DNA from: Patescibacteria group bacterium
GTDB taxonomy: Bacteria; Patescibacteriota; Microgenomatia; UBA10105; UBA927
Direction of reading: 5' to 3'
Length of the DNA stretch: 64,000 nt
NCBI GenBank assembly: GCA_038062895.1
Contig: JBBTWJ010000003.1
Span: 114,448 to 178,447, forward strand
Part shown: in pieces, positions 2,829 to 29,957 of the stretch
Layout: each line of letters opens with the position of its first letter
Numbering within the stretch: the stretch's first letter is position 1
Program-made: the position numbers and the translations under genes
The notes under the pieces: generated by a model
What the model was told of the DNA's origin: nothing
Database searches by the model: none
What the model saw: the letters and a program-made list of their open reading frames with translations, nothing else

Positions 2829-5114
2829 TCATGCCACAACCCCCATAAATTCAACCGTGCCGCCACAATATTCCACGATCTTCTCAACAGACTCATGGAG
2901 ACTGCGCGCAACTTGTTCTGATGTGATATCAAACACACCATCGACATTGATCCAAATATTTTTTGTCGCTTCCGTCACCATCGTGCGCTGGGCATCACGG
3001 AAGTTAAAATCGATATTATACCCGCCATCCTGATCATAATACGCAAGTTCCTTGGATGTGTATTTGGTCGCCCCGCTATCTCCAAGCAGTAATATTTCAT
3101 CTCCAACTCCCGCATATCGAAGTATGGTCGGAAACTTGACGGTATCGTAATCAAATGCACCGACCGATATCCGATGCTTCATGACAACGAGATTATATGC
3201 ATCCACACAGGTATTTATGGAATACAGTCCCTTACCCAATGCCACACGACGCAGTAAAGCCTCCGGAGAGGGACGCCGGGAATGCCAATCAATTCCCATT
3301 TCTTTATAGAGCTTACGATAACTTACGATCTCCGGATGCTGACCCAATTGTTCCGTCGTCAAACCCGCGAGAGATACAAGGAATTCTTTTTTTTCTGTTT
3401 CCAACTGTTCATTGAACTTTTGTATCTTTACGTCACGGATAAGCGCGATACCGATACTTGCCGAGGGATACCGCTCTTTTACCTTGGGATCGATCGAAAA
3501 TAAATCCGGTCTATCTATAGATTTCACTGATGACTGTTGTTTAGGTGATTGTGTTTTTTTGTTCAGCGTCAACCGTTCAACCATCACCTCAGTTGGAAAT
3601 TTTTTGAGTAACCACCCTGCCCGCGGCCCGTGCGGTTTATCCAGCGTGACCATATACAACGCATGAAATGCCTTTCCATGATCGATTTCATTTGTTTTTG
3701 CCAAGCGAAAAATTTCCGATTGCAACATTTCAGGATCATTTATTTTTGGCCAAATTATGGAAAGATCATTGAGAAACTTCCACTGTTCCTGGGATAATTC
3801 AATTTCATCAAATCGTTTCAAAGATATTTGATATCGATACTCATCCGGTGCATATTTACTTAACCAGACAGCTGTGTACGTTAAACGATCATTGAGAATA
3901 CGCTTCTCAAACTCACTCAATTGCGTACCTTTCACTGCTTCTAATTTACTCTGAAGGTCAACGTTAGGGAGCTGCCGATAATTAGCTATATCCCGAAATC
4001 TTGGTATAAATAATCCGGGAATTCGTGCGGGCACCTCTCCCGTTTGTGCATACTCAAACGCATGGGACAATTCTTCATCTTCCTCTTTGTTATACGCCTG
4101 CCAACAGCGATCATATTCATCAAAGAGATCCGGAATTGCCATCGTGCTCACAGGATCAAACTCAATTGCACGGTGGTAATCGGTTCTCGTGAAGAGAAAC
4201 CGCCCGATTGATGGAGGCAATAGCTTGGTAAGATCCCTCGCCTTGAGTCCTAACCCTTTTGATGAAGACATTTTTTTACCGCCGATAAGAATAAACTCGT
4301 ACGGCAAATTATAGGGGTTTGTAATATGGAATACTTCTTCACAAAGCGCTTTGGCAATATCGCGTGAACCACCAGCCGAGGAATGATCTTTTCCAGCGCC
4401 TTCAATCGTGACTCCGAGAACTTTCCAGTGTGCCGGCCAATCTACTTTCCACGGAAGCTTTCCGTTTCCATCAAAAGGGCTCACTGTACCGGTATGGCCA
4501 CATCCTTTCGTCCAAGTAACCATCGCCGGCTCACACGTATAAGAAACCATCTTACCGTCCCAACCATGCACCCGGGTCGTGCCCAGCTTCCCGCACTTCT
4601 CACAGATGACCTGGATGGGCATCCAGCCTTTCTCACGCTTTTTGCTCCCGCTTATACGCTGATAGATATCCTGTATCGTTTCCGAATTATCTAATGCTTC
4701 CCGGATAACTCCGTTAAACTTGCCTTCCCGGTACATATCCCAGGATGAAAGATACGTCGCCATCACTCCCATGCTCTTGAGCACCTGTTGAAAATCTTTG
4801 GTAAAATAATCGGCAAAACTCTCATACCCCTTTTCCGGAGACCGTGCGGTACGAAGGGGCTTACCCAACTCATCAGAGAGCGATGAAAGCTCGGGAGGTA
4901 ACCCGTCTATGGGATCGAAGTCGTTCAATACGTAGGTAAACGTCACGCTCTCGTTGGCTCGTTGAAGTGCCCGAAAAACCATATCATGTACGAGAGGTCC
5001 GCGAAGCGAGCCAATATGCGCAAACCCCGACGGGGTAAACATATCGTCCACCCAAAATGGCCGGTGGGCGCCGGAATCAATAATCTGTTTTGCAATTTTG
5101 TCTGCCCAAAACAT
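2829..5114 (-). CDS. lysK: class I lysyl-tRNA synthetase fused to a C-terminal B3/4 (tRNA-binding/editing-like) domain
   Basis: HIGS (HIGH-like) motif and the exact KMSSSKG signature of class I LysRS; the last ~230 aa resemble the PheT B3/4 domain. Confidence 0.85.
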   Translation of the reverse strand: MFWADKIAKQIIDSGAHRPFWVDDMFTPSGFAHIGSLRGPLVHDMVFRALQRANESVTFTYVLNDFDPIDGLPPELSSLSDELGKPLRTARSPEKGYESFADYFTKDFQQVLKSMGVMATYLSSWDMYREGKFNGVIREALDNSETIQDIYQRISGSKKREKGWMPIQVICEKCGKLGTTRVHGWDGKMVSYTCEPAMVTWTKGCGHTGTVSPFDGNGKLPWKVDWPAHWKVLGVTIEGAGKDHSSAGGSRDIAKALCEEVFHITNPYNLPYEFILIGGKKMSSSKGLGLKARDLTKLLPPSIGRFLFTRTDYHRAIEFDPVSTMAIPDLFDEYDRCWQAYNKEEDEELSHAFEYAQTGEVPARIPGLFIPRFRDIANYRQLPNVDLQSKLEAVKGTQLSEFEKRILNDRLTYTAVWLSKYAPDEYRYQISLKRFDEIELSQEQWKFLNDLSIIWPKINDPEMLQSEIFRLAKTNEIDHGKAFHALYMVTLDKPHGPRAGWLLKKFPTEVMVERLTLNKKTQSPKQQSSVKSIDRPDLFSIDPKVKERYPSASIGIALIRDVKIQKFNEQLETEKKEFLVSLAGLTTEQLGQHPEIVSYRKLYKEMGIDWHSRRPSPEALLRRVALGKGLYSINTCVDAYNLVVMKHRISVGAFDYDTVKFPTILRYAGVGDEILLLGDSGATKYTSKELAYYDQDGGYNIDFNFRDAQRTMVTEATKNIWINVDGVFDITSEQVARSLHESVEKIVEYCGGTVEFMGVVA

Positions 5115-21517: not shown

Positions 21518-24130
21518 TTATCCAACACTTCCCTCCATTTGTAATTGAATAAGTCTATTTAATTCGACGGCGTACTCGAGCGGGAGTTCTTTGACGATGG
21601 GCTCGATAAATCCATTAACAATCATGGACTCTGCCTGTGCTTTGCCAATCCCGCGGCTTTCAAGATAAAATAGTTGTTCATCCCCGATTTTAGAAACTCT
21701 CGCCTCATGCTCGATCGACACATCCTGCTCATCTATCTTCATCGTGGGATAGGTATCGGAGCGCGAAGCAGCATCGAGCAGTAATGCGTCACAAACGACT
21801 TTACTTTTGCTGTTGGTGGCACCCGGGATTACTTGTACCAGCCCCCGGTACGACGTTCTCCCCCCGCCCCGGCTTATGGATTTGGAAATAATCTGTGATG
21901 TGGTTTCCGGCGCCAAGTGCACTACTTTCCCTCCTGCATCTTGATGTTGCCCTGCTCCGGCATAAGCAATCGAAAGGATTTCTCCGCGTGCTTTTCTCCC
22001 CACTAAATAGACGCTCGGGTACTTCATGGTGAGTTTGGAATTATGAACGATGAAGCCTTGTGAAATGAAATTGCCTGTCCCCTCAACTTCGATATCCCAT
22101 GTAGGAATCAGATCGGAGGACTGCTTAGAAACTACAACTGGCACTATCTCAACAGTGTTATGTAATGTAATGCTTGAGCGCCCGACGAGTCTATGCATTT
22201 GAAGTTTTTTTGTCGATCGCCCTAGTATTTGTTTACGCATACCCGTACTCACGAAGTTCGCAAATCTATAATCTATCGGAAAATCCAGCCTATACGCGCC
22301 ATGCGCGATAGATGACACACCTAAAATACGAACTCGTTTTGGTTGGCTGAATTCGACATGAAGTCGAGATGTAATTCCGAGCGTTACGAGAAGTGACGCA
22401 ATATCTTCCAAAAGCGGTCGATTGACCGATTTAATATGAAATCGGTCATCAATGTTCCCGTCGGCATCCAAGTAGCCTGCGATAAATGATAACCGTTGCG
22501 ACTGGGGAAGCGACCACACCCATTGAGGAACACGCTTAGTCGCTGCGGTACCTAAAAATCCGTTAAGGCGAAAAAGCTCTGTAATCTCTTTACTGCTCCA
22601 AGCGAGATGGTGACCATCGGATCGTTCGGTAGGTGCAATATTCGTCAACGTCCGCATACAACTCATTAAGCGTTCCCTTGCTCTATCTTGGCGAGGCGTC
22701 GAGAAACCAACTTTCGCCCAACGAATAACTCCTTTTGTTTTTCCAAAGCGCAAATCTATGTTGCCATCGCCAATCCAATACCCGAATAACCACATCATTG
22801 CATCATCTGTATGTGCTATTTTTATCATCCTGGCTGCTCTTATACGTGTCATTTTCAATGATGAAGCATACTGATTATATGATTCAAACGTTGTAATCAA
22901 CCCGGGCATCTTCAGTGAATATTGAGCACCATAATCAATAGAAACACGGGGAACAATTGCTTTTTTTAGCTGATCAGCACGGACGTATGCCAGTCGGTAC
23001 CGTCCGAGCTTCTTGGGTTTTTGGACATCGTATATATATGAATAAAATGGATGGTTAGCAGTAACTCTTAGTGTTCGTTTTCCGATGGAAACCGTATGTA
23101 CAGGTTGACGACCGGAAAAACGCTTCGCTTTTACTTTTTGGAAGCAGAGTATTCCTTTTTGGTCATCATAGGAGAGAACTTTATCACCTAACGCAAGAGA
23201 CTCAATTGTTTTCACTCCTTCGGGAGTAGTCACTGTCGAACCCTCTGCTAAACAACCTAAATTTCCGTCGACCCATTCCATGACGCCTTCCTCTTCTACC
23301 CGCGCGCGCTTGGTGACCAGGTTATAGACATTGGTACTCCAATTTTGGATGGTGGTGTAACGGACCCGCGCTCCCTTTTTCACAATGATCTCAACCACTG
23401 CGCTATGGAGTGAATCTGTCGTGTAAATGGGAGCGGTGCATCCTTCGACGTAATGGACGAAGCTCCCCTCCTCGGCAATGATGAGGGTGCGCTCGAACTG
23501 TCCCATGTTGGCCGCATTGATACGGAAATACGCCTGAAGCGGCAAGTCCACGCGTACGCCTTTGGGCACATACACAAATGAACCTCCGGACCAAACTGCG
23601 CTATTGAGCGCAGCAAATTTATTATCTCCGGGAGGAATAATGGTGCCAAAGTACTGTTTCACAATCTCCGGATGCTCACGAAGTCCCGAATCCATATCCA
23701 AAAAAATGACCCCTTTTTTGCTAAGCGTTTCATGAATACTTTTGTACACAACTTCCGACTCATACTGTGCGCTGACCCCCGAAAGAAATTTCTTTTCCGC
23801 CTCCGGAATGCCAATCCGGTCATACGTATCACGGATTTCTACCGGAAGATCCTCCCAGCGCGATGCACGTTTTTCCGTCGGATTAATATAGTAGTAGATA
23901 TCATCAAAATTGATAGTCGTGAGATCTCCCCCCCACGCGGGTAAGGGTTTGCGGAAAAATTGATCAAGCGCTTTCAGCCGGAACTGCCGCATCCAGGGAG
24001 GGTCATTTTTCCGTACGCTCAATTCTTCAACAACGGTGCGGTCGAGCCCTTTTTTTGATTTAAATACGTAATTTTCCGGCTTGCGGAAACCATATTTGTA
24101 ACTACCGTTTACTGGTTTAAATTGGAGCAT
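21518..24130 (-). CDS. sufB: FeS-cluster assembly protein SufB interrupted by a 405-aa intein
   Basis: Exteins total 465 aa and read as canonical SufB (...EWVDGNLG / SKLTMKYPSVYL...); the inserted segment starts with Cys and ends with His-Asn, followed by Ser. Confidence 0.9.
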   Translation of the reverse strand: MLQFKPVNGSYKYGFRKPENYVFKSKKGLDRTVVEELSVRKNDPPWMRQFRLKALDQFFRKPLPAWGGDLTTINFDDIYYYINPTEKRASRWEDLPVEIRDTYDRIGIPEAEKKFLSGVSAQYESEVVYKSIHETLSKKGVIFLDMDSGLREHPEIVKQYFGTIIPPGDNKFAALNSAVWSGGSFVYVPKGVRVDLPLQAYFRINAANMGQFERTLIIAEEGSFVHYVEGCTAPIYTTDSLHSAVVEIIVKKGARVRYTTIQNWSTNVYNLVTKRARVEEEGVMEWVDGNLGCLAEGSTVTTPEGVKTIESLALGDKVLSYDDQKGILCFQKVKAKRFSGRQPVHTVSIGKRTLRVTANHPFYSYIYDVQKPKKLGRYRLAYVRADQLKKAIVPRVSIDYGAQYSLKMPGLITTFESYNQYASSLKMTRIRAARMIKIAHTDDAMMWLFGYWIGDGNIDLRFGKTKGVIRWAKVGFSTPRQDRARERLMSCMRTLTNIAPTERSDGHHLAWSSKEITELFRLNGFLGTAATKRVPQWVWSLPQSQRLSFIAGYLDADGNIDDRFHIKSVNRPLLEDIASLLVTLGITSRLHVEFSQPKRVRILGVSSIAHGAYRLDFPIDYRFANFVSTGMRKQILGRSTKKLQMHRLVGRSSITLHNTVEIVPVVVSKQSSDLIPTWDIEVEGTGNFISQGFIVHNSKLTMKYPSVYLVGRKARGEILSIAYAGAGQHQDAGGKVVHLAPETTSQIISKSISRGGGRTSYRGLVQVIPGATNSKSKVVCDALLLDAASRSDTYPTMKIDEQDVSIEHEARVSKIGDEQLFYLESRGIGKAQAESMIVNGFIEPIVKELPLEYAVELNRLIQLQMEGSVG
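22040..23254 (-). mobile_element. intein with a LAGLIDADG homing-endonuclease domain inside sufB (residues 293-697)
   Basis: N-terminal CLAEGSTV splicing block, two LAGLIDADG motifs (LFGYWIGDGN and IAGYLDADGN), C-terminal ...FIVHN followed by +1 Ser. Confidence 0.85.
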
Positions 24131-28508: not shown

Positions 28509-29342
28509 TTATTGGGGCGAAAAGGAGCGATCCTGCGGCGACTTGAGGTAATTTCCGGGTGTCGAAACGCGCTGACCGGACTTTTGTTCGAGCTCCCGCT
28601 TGGCGTTTCCGGCAATAGTTCCTCCTTGGCGGGCTGCCTGCTTATTTTTGGGGAAACCCTGCGAATTTTTTCCTCTGGTAATTCTGGTCGTTGATGCTTC
28701 GCCGAGCATGGTAAAAATAAGTTCCAAGTCGTCCATGTGATCGCGAAGATTTTCACGAGCGAGCCCTTTGAATTTTTTATATTCGGAAGGAGTCATGCCA
28801 AATGTGGCTTGAGATATCTCCGCGGTAAGAATAGCATACTCGCGGTCTCCACCAACGTCACGATGCTTCCATTCATCGGTGAGCTCCTCACGAATCGCGA
28901 TCCCGCGAATCCGCTTCTCAATCCAGCTGTCGGAATATCCTTTAGCTTTATAAAGTGCTCTCGTTCGTTTTGTCGCCAATTCCGGATCTTCAATTTCTTG
29001 TACCCGCTCATACCCTACGCGAGCAAGCCAACGCTTAAACGGTTCGGCTTTAGGGGAAGGAATAGATTGGATAATACGAAAGACGCCTTCCGTATTTGCA
29101 CAATCTGTTTCATATTTTTTACCGTCAGAAGCTTCTAATTTCAGTTGTCTACAAATTGTAGACAACTCAATTCCCTCACTTGCATGAACTCTGGTTTTCA
29201 TTGCATTCCAATATACACGGGGTTTATTACTATCCGTCAAAGCTTCTACTACATCTACAACAGAAAAATACCATTCATTCTGATAAATAATCTTTCGAAC
29301 TCTCTTGCCTTTAAAAATAGCAACCTTCGTCGATATGTCCAT
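28509..29342 (-). CDS. Bro-N domain / DinD-like (DNA-damage-inducible protein D family) protein
   Basis: N-terminal Bro-N-like block (IFKGKRVRKIIYQNEWYFSVVDVVEAL) and a C-terminal KilA-C-like region. Confidence 0.5.
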   Translation of the reverse strand: MDISTKVAIFKGKRVRKIIYQNEWYFSVVDVVEALTDSNKPRVYWNAMKTRVHASEGIELSTICRQLKLEASDGKKYETDCANTEGVFRIIQSIPSPKAEPFKRWLARVGYERVQEIEDPELATKRTRALYKAKGYSDSWIEKRIRGIAIREELTDEWKHRDVGGDREYAILTAEISQATFGMTPSEYKKFKGLARENLRDHMDDLELIFTMLGEASTTRITRGKNSQGFPKNKQAARQGGTIAGNAKRELEQKSGQRVSTPGNYLKSPQDRSFSPQ

Positions 29343-29426
29343 GCCATCGTTGTATCAGCTTTATGATCCTAACGCAAGGAAAAATAGCCCTTGCATATTA
29401 AGAGATAACAATGGTAATCTGGGCGT

Positions 29427-29957
29427 ATGGCAGATGCTCCCGAAATGTGTCCGAAGTGCGGTGCTCCCCTAGGGGACATCGTCGAAACAGCCTCCGGCAA
29501 AAAACTCCAACGGTGTACGAAGGGATCCTGGAATGCTCAAACCAAAAAGAATGAAGGGTGTGACTATGTAAAATGGCTCATGGTCGAACCAAAACCATTG
29601 GATGAAAAATGCCCCAAGTGCGGATCGCCGCTCGTCCTGCAGGTTACCCGTTTTGGTAAAAAAATGAAAAAATGTTCGATGGGCGGCTGGGATAAAGAAA
29701 CCAAAAAACCCACCGGATGTGATTACATAGAATGGATCAACGGTACCACGGAGCCACTCAAGGAAGCGTGTCCGGAATGCGGCAAACCTTTAGTGCTCTT
29801 CACCACAAGCGCCGGAAAGCGAATGATCAAATGCTCAACCGCAGGATGGGATAAAGCGGCACGCCAAGCGACCGGCTGCGCGTACGTGCAATGGCTCAAG
29901 CCCGGAGAAATGGTCAACAATGGTGAAGAAGGCCTCCCCCCCGATCCGGATCAATAA
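29427..29957 (+). CDS. protein made of three tandem C4 zinc-ribbon repeats (topoisomerase-type zinc-finger-like)
   Basis: Three ~55-aa units, each with CP(K/E)CG-x-PL ... C(T/S)xGxW ... GC(D/A)Y(V/I)xWL. Confidence 0.6.
   Translation: MADAPEMCPKCGAPLGDIVETASGKKLQRCTKGSWNAQTKKNEGCDYVKWLMVEPKPLDEKCPKCGSPLVLQVTRFGKKMKKCSMGGWDKETKKPTGCDYIEWINGTTEPLKEACPECGKPLVLFTTSAGKRMIKCSTAGWDKAARQATGCAYVQWLKPGEMVNNGEEGLPPDPDQ

Follow-up and report, generated by a model that had tools for sequence, protein, structure and literature searches.

A Conserved Stand-Alone Array of Three Putative Long-Loop Zinc Ribbons in Microgenomates Bacteria, a Candidate Single-Stranded Nucleic-Acid Binder

Introduction

The zf-GRF fingers (PF06839; GRF-like, PF23549) of proteins such as APE2, NEIL3, and TOP3-alpha are zinc ribbons that bind single-stranded DNA (ssDNA). 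The C-terminal ribbons of Escherichia coli topoisomerase I (TopoI) likewise bind ssDNA, and do so without sequence specificity (PMC4678816). In TopoI ribbons the bases of ssDNA stack on aromatic residues that flank the third cysteine, Cys3 (PMC9369019, PMC4678816), and in the E. coli enzyme the stacking aromatics are F616 and Y728 (PMC4678816). E. coli TopoI also contacts RNA polymerase (RNAP) through its zinc domain and its C-terminal domain, and a free 14-kDa C-terminal fragment of TopoI, which consists of zinc-less ribbon-like domains and contains no four-cysteine ribbons, co-purifies with RNAP (PMC9352719). E. coli YrdD (b3283, COG0551), named a “putative DNA topoisomerase,” has been reported to bind ssDNA in a zinc-dependent manner (PMC4678816).

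Here we describe a gene for a protein of three tandem zinc-ribbon repeats, found in a 64,000-nucleotide stretch of DNA from a Patescibacteria group bacterium (contig JBBTWJ010000003.1; hereafter the window). An earlier reading of the window, made from the sequence only, had likened the repeats to the C4 zinc fingers of topoisomerase I and had pointed out that they are stand-alone and triplicated; the architecture is confirmed, and it has a precedent in E. coli YrdD. A search of the literature turned up no publication on the protein from Microgenomates or the candidate phyla radiation (CPR) at large.

Results

The gene runs from an ATG to a TAA codon on the plus strand (positions 29427 to 29957, stop codon included) and is complete, as judged from the list of open reading frames and from the sequence. 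Its product has 176 amino acids, a mass of 19 kDa, and a pI of about 8.5, and contains 12 cysteines and no histidine. The cysteines, at residues 8/11/30/45, 62/65/83/98, and 115/118/136/151, fall into three sets that are all in register, with the spacing C-x2-C-x18-C-x14-C in repeat 1 and C-x2-C-x17-C-x14-C in repeats 2 and 3. The repeats are 40 to 55% identical to one another, and their alignments reach z values of 18.6 to 27.9 against 1,000 shuffles, none of which came near the real score. The ORF is thus as the sequence-only reading had it, a 176-aa protein of three tandem four-cysteine units, and the motifs quoted there, CP(K/E)CG, C(T/S)xGxW, and GC(D/A)Y(V/I)xW, are accurate, save that repeat 2 ends in WI and not in WL.

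Repeat 1 (positions 29442 to 29579, plus strand; residues 6 to 51) contains Cys8, Cys11, Cys30, and Cys45 and has alignment z values of 18.6 to 23.5 against shuffles. In a 66-sequence alignment its invariant residues are C8, P9, C11, C30, W35, G44, C45, and W50, and beta strands are predicted at residues 14 to 20, 26 to 30, 34 to 36, 41 to 43, and 48 to 51. Repeat 2 (positions 29601 to 29738, plus strand; residues 59 to 104), with Cys62, Cys65, Cys83, and Cys98, is the best conserved of the three and also the most basic (TRFGKKMKKCS). Its N-terminal part is invariant at E60, K61, C62, P63, C65, T74, R75, F76, G77, and K78, and its C-terminal part at K81, C83, G86, W88, C98, and W103 (same 66 sequences). 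Repeat 3 (positions 29760 to 29897, plus strand; residues 112 to 157) carries Cys115, Cys118, Cys136, and Cys151. The net charges of the three ribbons are +2, +4, and +4, that of repeat 3 being counted over residues 108 to 158.

Beyond a variable linker lies a short acidic C-terminal motif, G-E-E-x-L-P-P (positions 29922 to 29942, plus strand; residues 166 to 172), in which E167 and L170 are invariant and G166, E168, P171, and P172 are kept in at least 90% of the 66 sequences. The last 18 residues (159 to 176) have a net charge of −5 and contain neither Lys nor Arg, and the tail is predicted to be disordered (pLDDT <50).

Searched against 5.8 billion protein clusters, the protein gave ~1,943 homologous 90%-identity clusters, and all 12 cysteines and six tryptophans are invariant in the 66-sequence alignment; the ORF is therefore a real small gene. 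The best 120 of the ~1,943 homologs are all 164 to 210 amino acids long and 70 to 85% identical. When 1.84 billion 50%-identity representatives were searched exhaustively with HMMER, a single full-length one was recovered (P0121, 71% identity), so that the family amounts to one 50% cluster. Scans of genomes and metagenomes gave 109 and 412 related loci, respectively, and flanking sequences were fetched for 160 of 189 related loci from the two kinds of scan. The homologs with an informative label belong to Gottesman-, Levy-, Shapiro-, Collier-, Davies-, Woese-, Ames-, and Roizmanbacteria, all CPR of the Microgenomates type, and the closest matches, at 95% identity, are from Gottesmanbacteria. 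The family seems to be confined to Microgenomates. A phage origin was rejected: no tblastn match was found in 50,697 phage records, and predicted viral structures gave no significant match to the protein.

Homologs are labelled [quoted passage not shown] or COG0551 by NCBI and JGI, and several are labelled “ssDNA-binding Zn-finger/Zn-ribbon topoisomerase 1” by JGI. As to the labels of the assemblies themselves, several TPA assemblies named “uncultured Gammaproteobacteria/Pseudomonadales” bear the same gene and are evidently mislabelled.

The pairwise identity of the protein has a median of 70.5% and a minimum of 60% over 75 loci. When the same genome pairs were compared, it proved better conserved than every neighboring family compared, among them a likely GltX (glutamyl-tRNA synthetase; 40%), an ABC ATPase (67%), and an RRM protein, which reached 81% versus 85% for the zinc-ribbon protein. 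A given repeat varies less from genome to genome than the three repeats differ among themselves, which indicates that the triplication is older than the group's radiation and that each repeat is under constraints of its own.

The likeness to topoisomerase ribbons was examined with profiles. The whole protein matches the Pfam family Zn_ribbon_Top1 (PF01396) with 37.2 bits, above the cutoff of 32, and so the repeats do answer to a zinc-ribbon HMM. Taken singly, repeats 2 and 3 score 27.3 and 18.0 bits, both under the cutoff of 32, and repeat 1 alone has no Zn_ribbon_Top1 match at E ≤ 0.1. The PF01396 matches span profile positions 1 to 21 of 39, the best being that of residues 59 to 78 in repeat 2 (positions 1 to 20), and a full 39-position match that includes the second knuckle, C-S-x-Y-P-x-C, was obtained for none of the repeats. 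When a profile of 71 variant units was aligned by hhalign with 49 canonical Top1 units, taken from YrdD and various TopA proteins, the probability was 97.7% and the E value 1.7e-12, over columns 1 to 28 only. These columns run from Cys1 to just beyond Cys3, so that homology to Top1 ribbons covers the first two-thirds of the repeat.

Past this point the two kinds of unit diverge. Canonical units read G-x-F-x-x-C-S-x-Y-P-x-C, with an invariant Pro and with Cys3 and Cys4 about five residues apart, whereas the units here read G-K-K-(L/M)-x-(K/R)-C-(S/T)-x-G-x-W, followed by a 14-residue loop and G-C-x-Y-(V/I)-x-W. The second knuckle thus carries an insertion of ~9 residues relative to the canonical one, and the canonical invariant Pro is absent. 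The positions of the stacking aromatics are occupied by L27, M80, and M133 before Cys3 and by G33, G86, and A139 after it; because both positions hold such residues, Leu/Met and Gly/Ala, the canonical ssDNA-binding mode is not kept residue for residue. Every repeat has an invariant Trp at Cys3+5, which may substitute for the stacking aromatics, and a Y-x-x-W beyond Cys4. The proposed match to topoisomerase I C4 fingers accordingly stands for the first half of the repeats, whereas the second knuckle is remodelled and the stacking aromatics are missing.

A structure model of moderate confidence (pLDDT 73, pTM 0.43), in which the mutual orientation of the ribbons is undefined, predicts an antiparallel beta-sheet zinc-ribbon fold that resembles domains D5 to D7 of E. 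coli TopoI, with an additional small hairpin in the Cys3−Cys4 stretch. The sole significant fold matches of the model are to the zinc-ribbon array of E. coli topoisomerase I, and the top Foldseek matches are TopoI chains out of RNAP−TopoI complexes. A single-repeat profile run against PDB sequences matched no solved domain over its full length; the PDB matches of this profile to CPxCG knuckles (e.g., those of designed C2H2 fingers) were rejected as spurious.

Upstream of the gene we found a putative promoter (positions 29391 to 29420, plus strand), with TTGCAT at 29391 to 29396, an 18-nt spacer, and an extended −10 element, TGgTAATCT, at 29412 to 29420. The extended −10 element ends 6 nt upstream of the ATG, and there is no Shine−Dalgarno (SD) sequence. 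A TAnnnT motif that ends 4 to 9 nt before the ATG is present in 132 of 143 homologs versus 40% of the other genes of the same loci, the extended form TGnTAnnnT in 95 of 143 versus 16%, and an SD-like sequence in 9 of 143 versus 17%, in all of which counts the loci are related, so that Fisher p-values overstate the significance. The promoter-like element was detected solely via the comparison of homologous upstream regions; a generic sigma-70 promoter scan did not call the site, and a terminator scan and Rfam gave nothing around the gene. The conserved promoter-like element abutting the ATG and the scarcity of SD-like sequences suggest that the zinc-ribbon gene is probably its own transcription unit with a leaderless mRNA.

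Among 50%-identity representatives, HMMER also recovered distant homologs in which one or two copies of the long-loop ribbon lie at the C terminus of other proteins. Type IA topoisomerases with the long-loop ribbon are P0147 (from a Mollicute contig), P0152, P0208, and P0209, and TopA proteins with similar ribbons occur on a Firmicute-like contig (P0227), in the Mollicute (P0147), and in jumbo phages (P0261). The long-loop ribbon is also carried by two ERF-family annealing proteins (P0168 and one other) and by one Rad52-family protein, and further ribbon proteins match the PHROGs recombinase, endonuclease VII, and exonuclease. In addition, there are ~45 small single-ribbon proteins, the N termini of which are mostly unannotated. 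DNA is the substrate of every identifiable fusion partner, and for most of them it is single-stranded. Because ERF/Rad52 annealing proteins and type IA topoisomerases carry this ribbon variant as a fusion, the role in nucleic-acid binding or DNA transactions that the sequence-only reading had proposed is plausible.

The rest of the window is ordinary chromosome and encodes a class I LysRS, Lon, SufB, PFOR, Pif1, RecJ, a ComM-like gene product, and MFS and YkuD proteins. Clustering of 1,448 neighboring ORFs from 81 loci (80 genome loci and the window) revealed no family that accompanies the zinc-ribbon gene as an operon partner. The most frequent neighbor family within 10 kb occurs in 18 of 76 loci, and a small GIY-YIG protein leads within 3 kb (11 of 76 loci); the commonest immediate neighbor is present in 6 of 73.

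Discussion

By analogy with the characterized ribbon proteins, we lean somewhat toward the view that the protein is a zinc-dependent, sequence-independent binder of single-stranded nucleic acid, most likely ssDNA, whose tail docks a partner. Each ribbon would hold one Zn(II) via its four cysteines, as homology and the predicted fold suggest, and ssDNA would lie along the row of three basic ribbons, by analogy with the C-terminal ribbons (D5 to D9) of E. coli TopoI and with YrdD. The contacts would be made by the invariant G-K-K-(L/M)-x-(K/R)-Cys3 strand and by the invariant Trp, which would replace the canonical stacking aromatics. The acidic tail may dock a protein partner or fold back onto the basic ribbons in the manner of SSB. 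Judging from the upstream sequence, the gene would be transcribed alone, from the extended −10 promoter, into a leaderless mRNA. In favor of a binder we count the Top1 homology, the fusions to DNA enzymes, the charge layout of ribbons and tail, the conservation, and the independent expression; against it, we count the missing stacking aromatics, the half-repeat Top1 match, the moderate model, and the uninformative genomic context. Conservation this strong could also stem from contact with a protein partner and not with nucleic acid.

Such conservation would be in keeping with RNAP as the partner, given how conserved RNAP is. If the protein were an RNAP-associated factor, its ribbons would bind RNAP and perhaps the non-template strand, and it would serve in transcription or R-loop control. 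This view gains from the origin of the top Foldseek matches in RNAP−TopoI complexes, from the RNAP contacts of TopoI and the co-purification of its 14-kDa fragment (PMC9352719), and from weak similarities to the RNAP-binding ribbons of Elf1, TFIIS, Rpb9, and TFS4. We nevertheless think it unlikely, as Elf1, TFIIS, and Rpb9 match only in the generic way of zinc ribbons, at low Z values (2.6 to 3.5), and the genomic context offers no link to rpo or nus genes; GreA is adjacent in one lineage only and is not a recurrent neighbor.

The protein would instead be a C-terminal module of TopA acting in trans if TopA were split, and it would then supply an ssDNA-holding domain to a Microgenomates TopA that would have no zinc ribbons of its own or too few, docking on TopA or its substrate. 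The closest structural matches are indeed the C-terminal ribbons of TopoI, the ribbon variant directly follows the TopA catalytic core in the four type IA topoisomerases named above, and conservation at the level of a core gene would suit an essential partner. Moreover, E. coli yrdD sits after smf(dprA)-smg, where the Firmicute-like contig has dprA-topA, and from this topA-like position it appears that ribbon-only genes can derive from topA. We consider a split TopA decidedly unlikely, however. The gene never adjoins a topoisomerase gene, and no TopA gene was found in the window or in a total of ~2 Mb of sequence flanking 160 Microgenomates loci. Furthermore, the family is old and uniform, unlike the product of a recent gene split, and the part of the E. 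coli TopoI ribbon region that was examined has no equivalent of the acidic tail.

Three predicted Zn sites in only 176 amino acids could also serve a protein-interaction scaffold, a zinc buffer, or a ribosome-associated protein, with no role in nucleic-acid binding. The protein is highly conserved and its gene has a strong promoter-like element, as is typical when a protein is abundant, and a ZIP zinc transporter is encoded one or two genes away in four loci (L001, L003, L014, and L061). This proximity is limited to a few related loci, though, and a general linkage to ZIP transporters was rejected, as besides L001 and L003 it is seen in 2 of 80 genome loci. Given also that the identifiable fusion partners of the ribbon variant are all DNA enzymes, and that an invariant Lys and Trp in each repeat suggest a ligand-binding surface over metal storage, we regard these roles as very improbable.

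The gene next to the zinc-ribbon gene (positions 28509 to 29342, minus strand) encodes a Bro-N protein (PF02498, E = 3e-15). The sequence-only reading had the zinc-ribbon gene follow a Bro-N/DinD-like gene and took the adjacency as a hint of a DNA-related role. The order holds in coordinates, but the two genes are divergent, 84 bp apart, with Bro-N on the minus strand; the Bro-N domain is real, but similarity to E. coli DinD is not significant (BLASTP, E = 0.91), and there is no NCBIfam hit. Nor is the gene pair conserved: of 80 other loci, 5 have a Bro-N homolog within ~3 kb of the gene, variously placed and in every case on the opposite strand, and the divergent arrangement of the window recurs in one close relative (L009) but not in L008, which encodes a 95% identical zinc-ribbon protein and has no Bro-N homolog. 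With no Bro-N homolog beside the gene in most relatives, the adjacency loses its value as a hint. A functional partnership of the two proteins in a DNA-damage or phage antirepressor module, suggested by their divergent proximity in the window and in L009, is effectively refuted by this lack of co-occurrence, and the housekeeping, non-prophage surroundings and the lack of matches in phage records argue against it as well.

As regards the single-stranded nucleic-acid binder that we prefer, what was already known comprises the domain type, the ribbon-only architecture, and the domain-based naming by NCBI and JGI. What is new, as far as sequence comparison can tell, is a long-loop ribbon variant in which two features that define canonical Top1 ribbons are missing, together with an apparent restriction to Microgenomates, conservation at the level of core genes, a conserved tail, and a putative leaderless-type promoter. 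Modest as this is alone, it provides a well-defined target, a small and easily expressed protein that is among the most conserved of a large uncultivated lineage. The testable prediction is that each chain holds three Zn, binds ssDNA via basic and Trp surfaces, and docks a partner through its tail. It is a bold and rather unlikely extension that this is a core, Microgenomates-wide protein which takes over, or adds to, a function found in cis elsewhere, either as a TopA C-terminal domain in trans or as a single-strand-binding or nucleoid protein peculiar to the lineage, with GEE-x-LPP as the means of recruiting partners. If true, ribbon-array proteins that bind ssDNA would make up a new functional class, one that is essential to a large branch of the CPR.

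Comparison with Known Systems

In general layout the protein resembles bacterial SSB, with a basic body that would bind nucleic acid, joined by a flexible linker to a short C-terminal motif, acidic-hydrophobic and conserved. It has no OB fold and no sequence similarity to SSB, and the analogy is one of layout only.

The ribbons of E. coli TopoI are closer. Both proteins have three tandem ribbons with a CP-x-CG first knuckle, a hairpin, and a G-basic-x-hydrophobic-x-x-Cys3 strand; in the protein described here, however, no topoisomerase core is attached, and Cys3 and Cys4 are separated by 14 residues instead of about five.

E. coli YrdD resembles the window protein in size (180 versus 176 amino acids) and in consisting of tandem CxxC...C...C ribbons of the TopoI type only, with the catalytic domain absent. 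YrdD matches PF01396 with 180 bits and three full-length matches, whereas the protein described here reaches 37 bits and matches over about half the profile length only. The BLASTP alignment of the two is local (E = 1e-6, 33% identity over 78 columns, 17 gaps), and its gaps, of 9 to 10 residues each, are sited between Cys3 and Cys4. YrdD alone has canonical F-x-x-C-S-x-Y-P-x-C knuckles and four ribbons, and it lacks the GEE-x-LPP acidic tail; its gene lies in the context smf-smg-yrdD-tsaC, whereas that of the window has no conserved context. YrdD and the window protein are analogous architectures, not orthologs.

GRF-type ribbons come near the repeats at their other end. The whole protein scores exactly the cutoff of 27 against the GRF-like ribbon family PF23549, and single repeats match that family with E values of 0.04 to 0.06; PF06839 is absent from the single-repeat matches, and the repeat profile retrieved no solved GRF chains. 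The consensus first knuckle of GRF ribbons is C-x-C/H (PMC9369019), in contrast to C-x2-C in all three repeats here. Before Cys3, the NxGRxF of GRF ribbons corresponds to G-K-K/R-L/M, in which the Gly and a basic residue are kept and the Phe is replaced, and after Cys4, F-F-x-W corresponds to C-x-Y-V/I-x-W, in which one aromatic and the Trp are kept. As the ending is GRF-like, yet the first knuckle is C-x2-C and neither PF06839 nor a solved GRF chain was recovered, we treat the unit as a distinct, putative long-loop subfamily of the Top1/GRF ribbon superfamily. Such a subfamily would bridge Top1-type and GRF-type ribbons, and it may help to annotate phage and Mollicute topoisomerases as well as ERF/Rad52 annealing proteins.

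Genes around the zinc-ribbon gene

The gene for the Bro-N protein (28509-29342, minus strand; 277 aa) has homologs with 49 to 76% identity at five other Microgenomates loci (L009, L025, L065, L080, and L081), all of them situated amid housekeeping genes. It looks like a resident chromosomal gene, not phage cargo. The C-terminal 170 residues of the protein gave no match to Pfam or NCBIfam models.

The SufB gene (21518-24130, minus strand) encodes an 870-aa protein with an insertion that harbors a LAGLIDADG homing-endonuclease domain and is probably an intein. The orthologs of L009 (871 aa) and L011 (882 aa) also carry the insertion, while that of L008, the zinc-ribbon protein of which is 95% identical to that of the window, is 472 aa long and lacks it; the insertion is therefore polymorphic between close relatives. 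Elsewhere in the window (2829-5114, minus strand), a class I lysyl-tRNA synthetase (PF01921) and a C-terminal B3/4 domain (PF03483), the usual home of which is the PheRS beta subunit, form one 761-aa fusion protein.

Start regions and taxonomic labels of the Microgenomates loci

Among the other genes of loci L008 to L087, a TAnnnT hexamer ending 4 to 9 nt before the called ATG was found for ~40% and a Shine-Dalgarno (SD)-like sequence for only 17%, with ATG positions taken from crude longest-ORF calls. In this Microgenomates lineage, initiation may commonly be leaderless or SD-independent.

Many TPA metagenome bins named "uncultured Gammaproteobacteria" or "uncultured Pseudomonadales" hold the Microgenomates-specific zinc-ribbon gene, and its neighbors in these bins are Microgenomates-like too. 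The Gammaproteobacteria and Pseudomonadales labels of these records, which include L009, L014, L016, L019, L022, and many other genome contig loci, appear to be wrong.

Other carriers of the long-loop ribbon

A single long-loop ribbon is found in each of P0156, P0172, P0182, P0187, and ~40 more protein representatives of 130 to 230 aa (alignment A2). The domain N-terminal to the ribbon in these ~45 proteins is mostly left without annotation by any Pfam or PHROG model; a few of the proteins have an ERF or Rad52 domain in its place. P0220 (235 aa) also possesses three ribbons, but their unit, C-(S/P)-K-C-N...G-T-C-(D/S)-F-I-(E/Q)-W-K, is shorter. It is apparently an independent array, outside the Microgenomates family, in which the long-loop variant is repeated in tandem.

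Stand-alone ribbons are known from E. coli YrdD, an array of Top1-type zinc ribbons with no catalytic domain. In the E. coli smf-smg-yrdD-tsaC locus (L007), yrdD lies downstream of smf (dprA), with smg alone between them. On a Firmicute-like contig with the order dprA-topA-trmFO-xerC (L088), a full-length topA directly follows dprA. These two arrangements suggest that yrdD may derive from a topA 3′ end, either as its remnant or as a duplicate of it.
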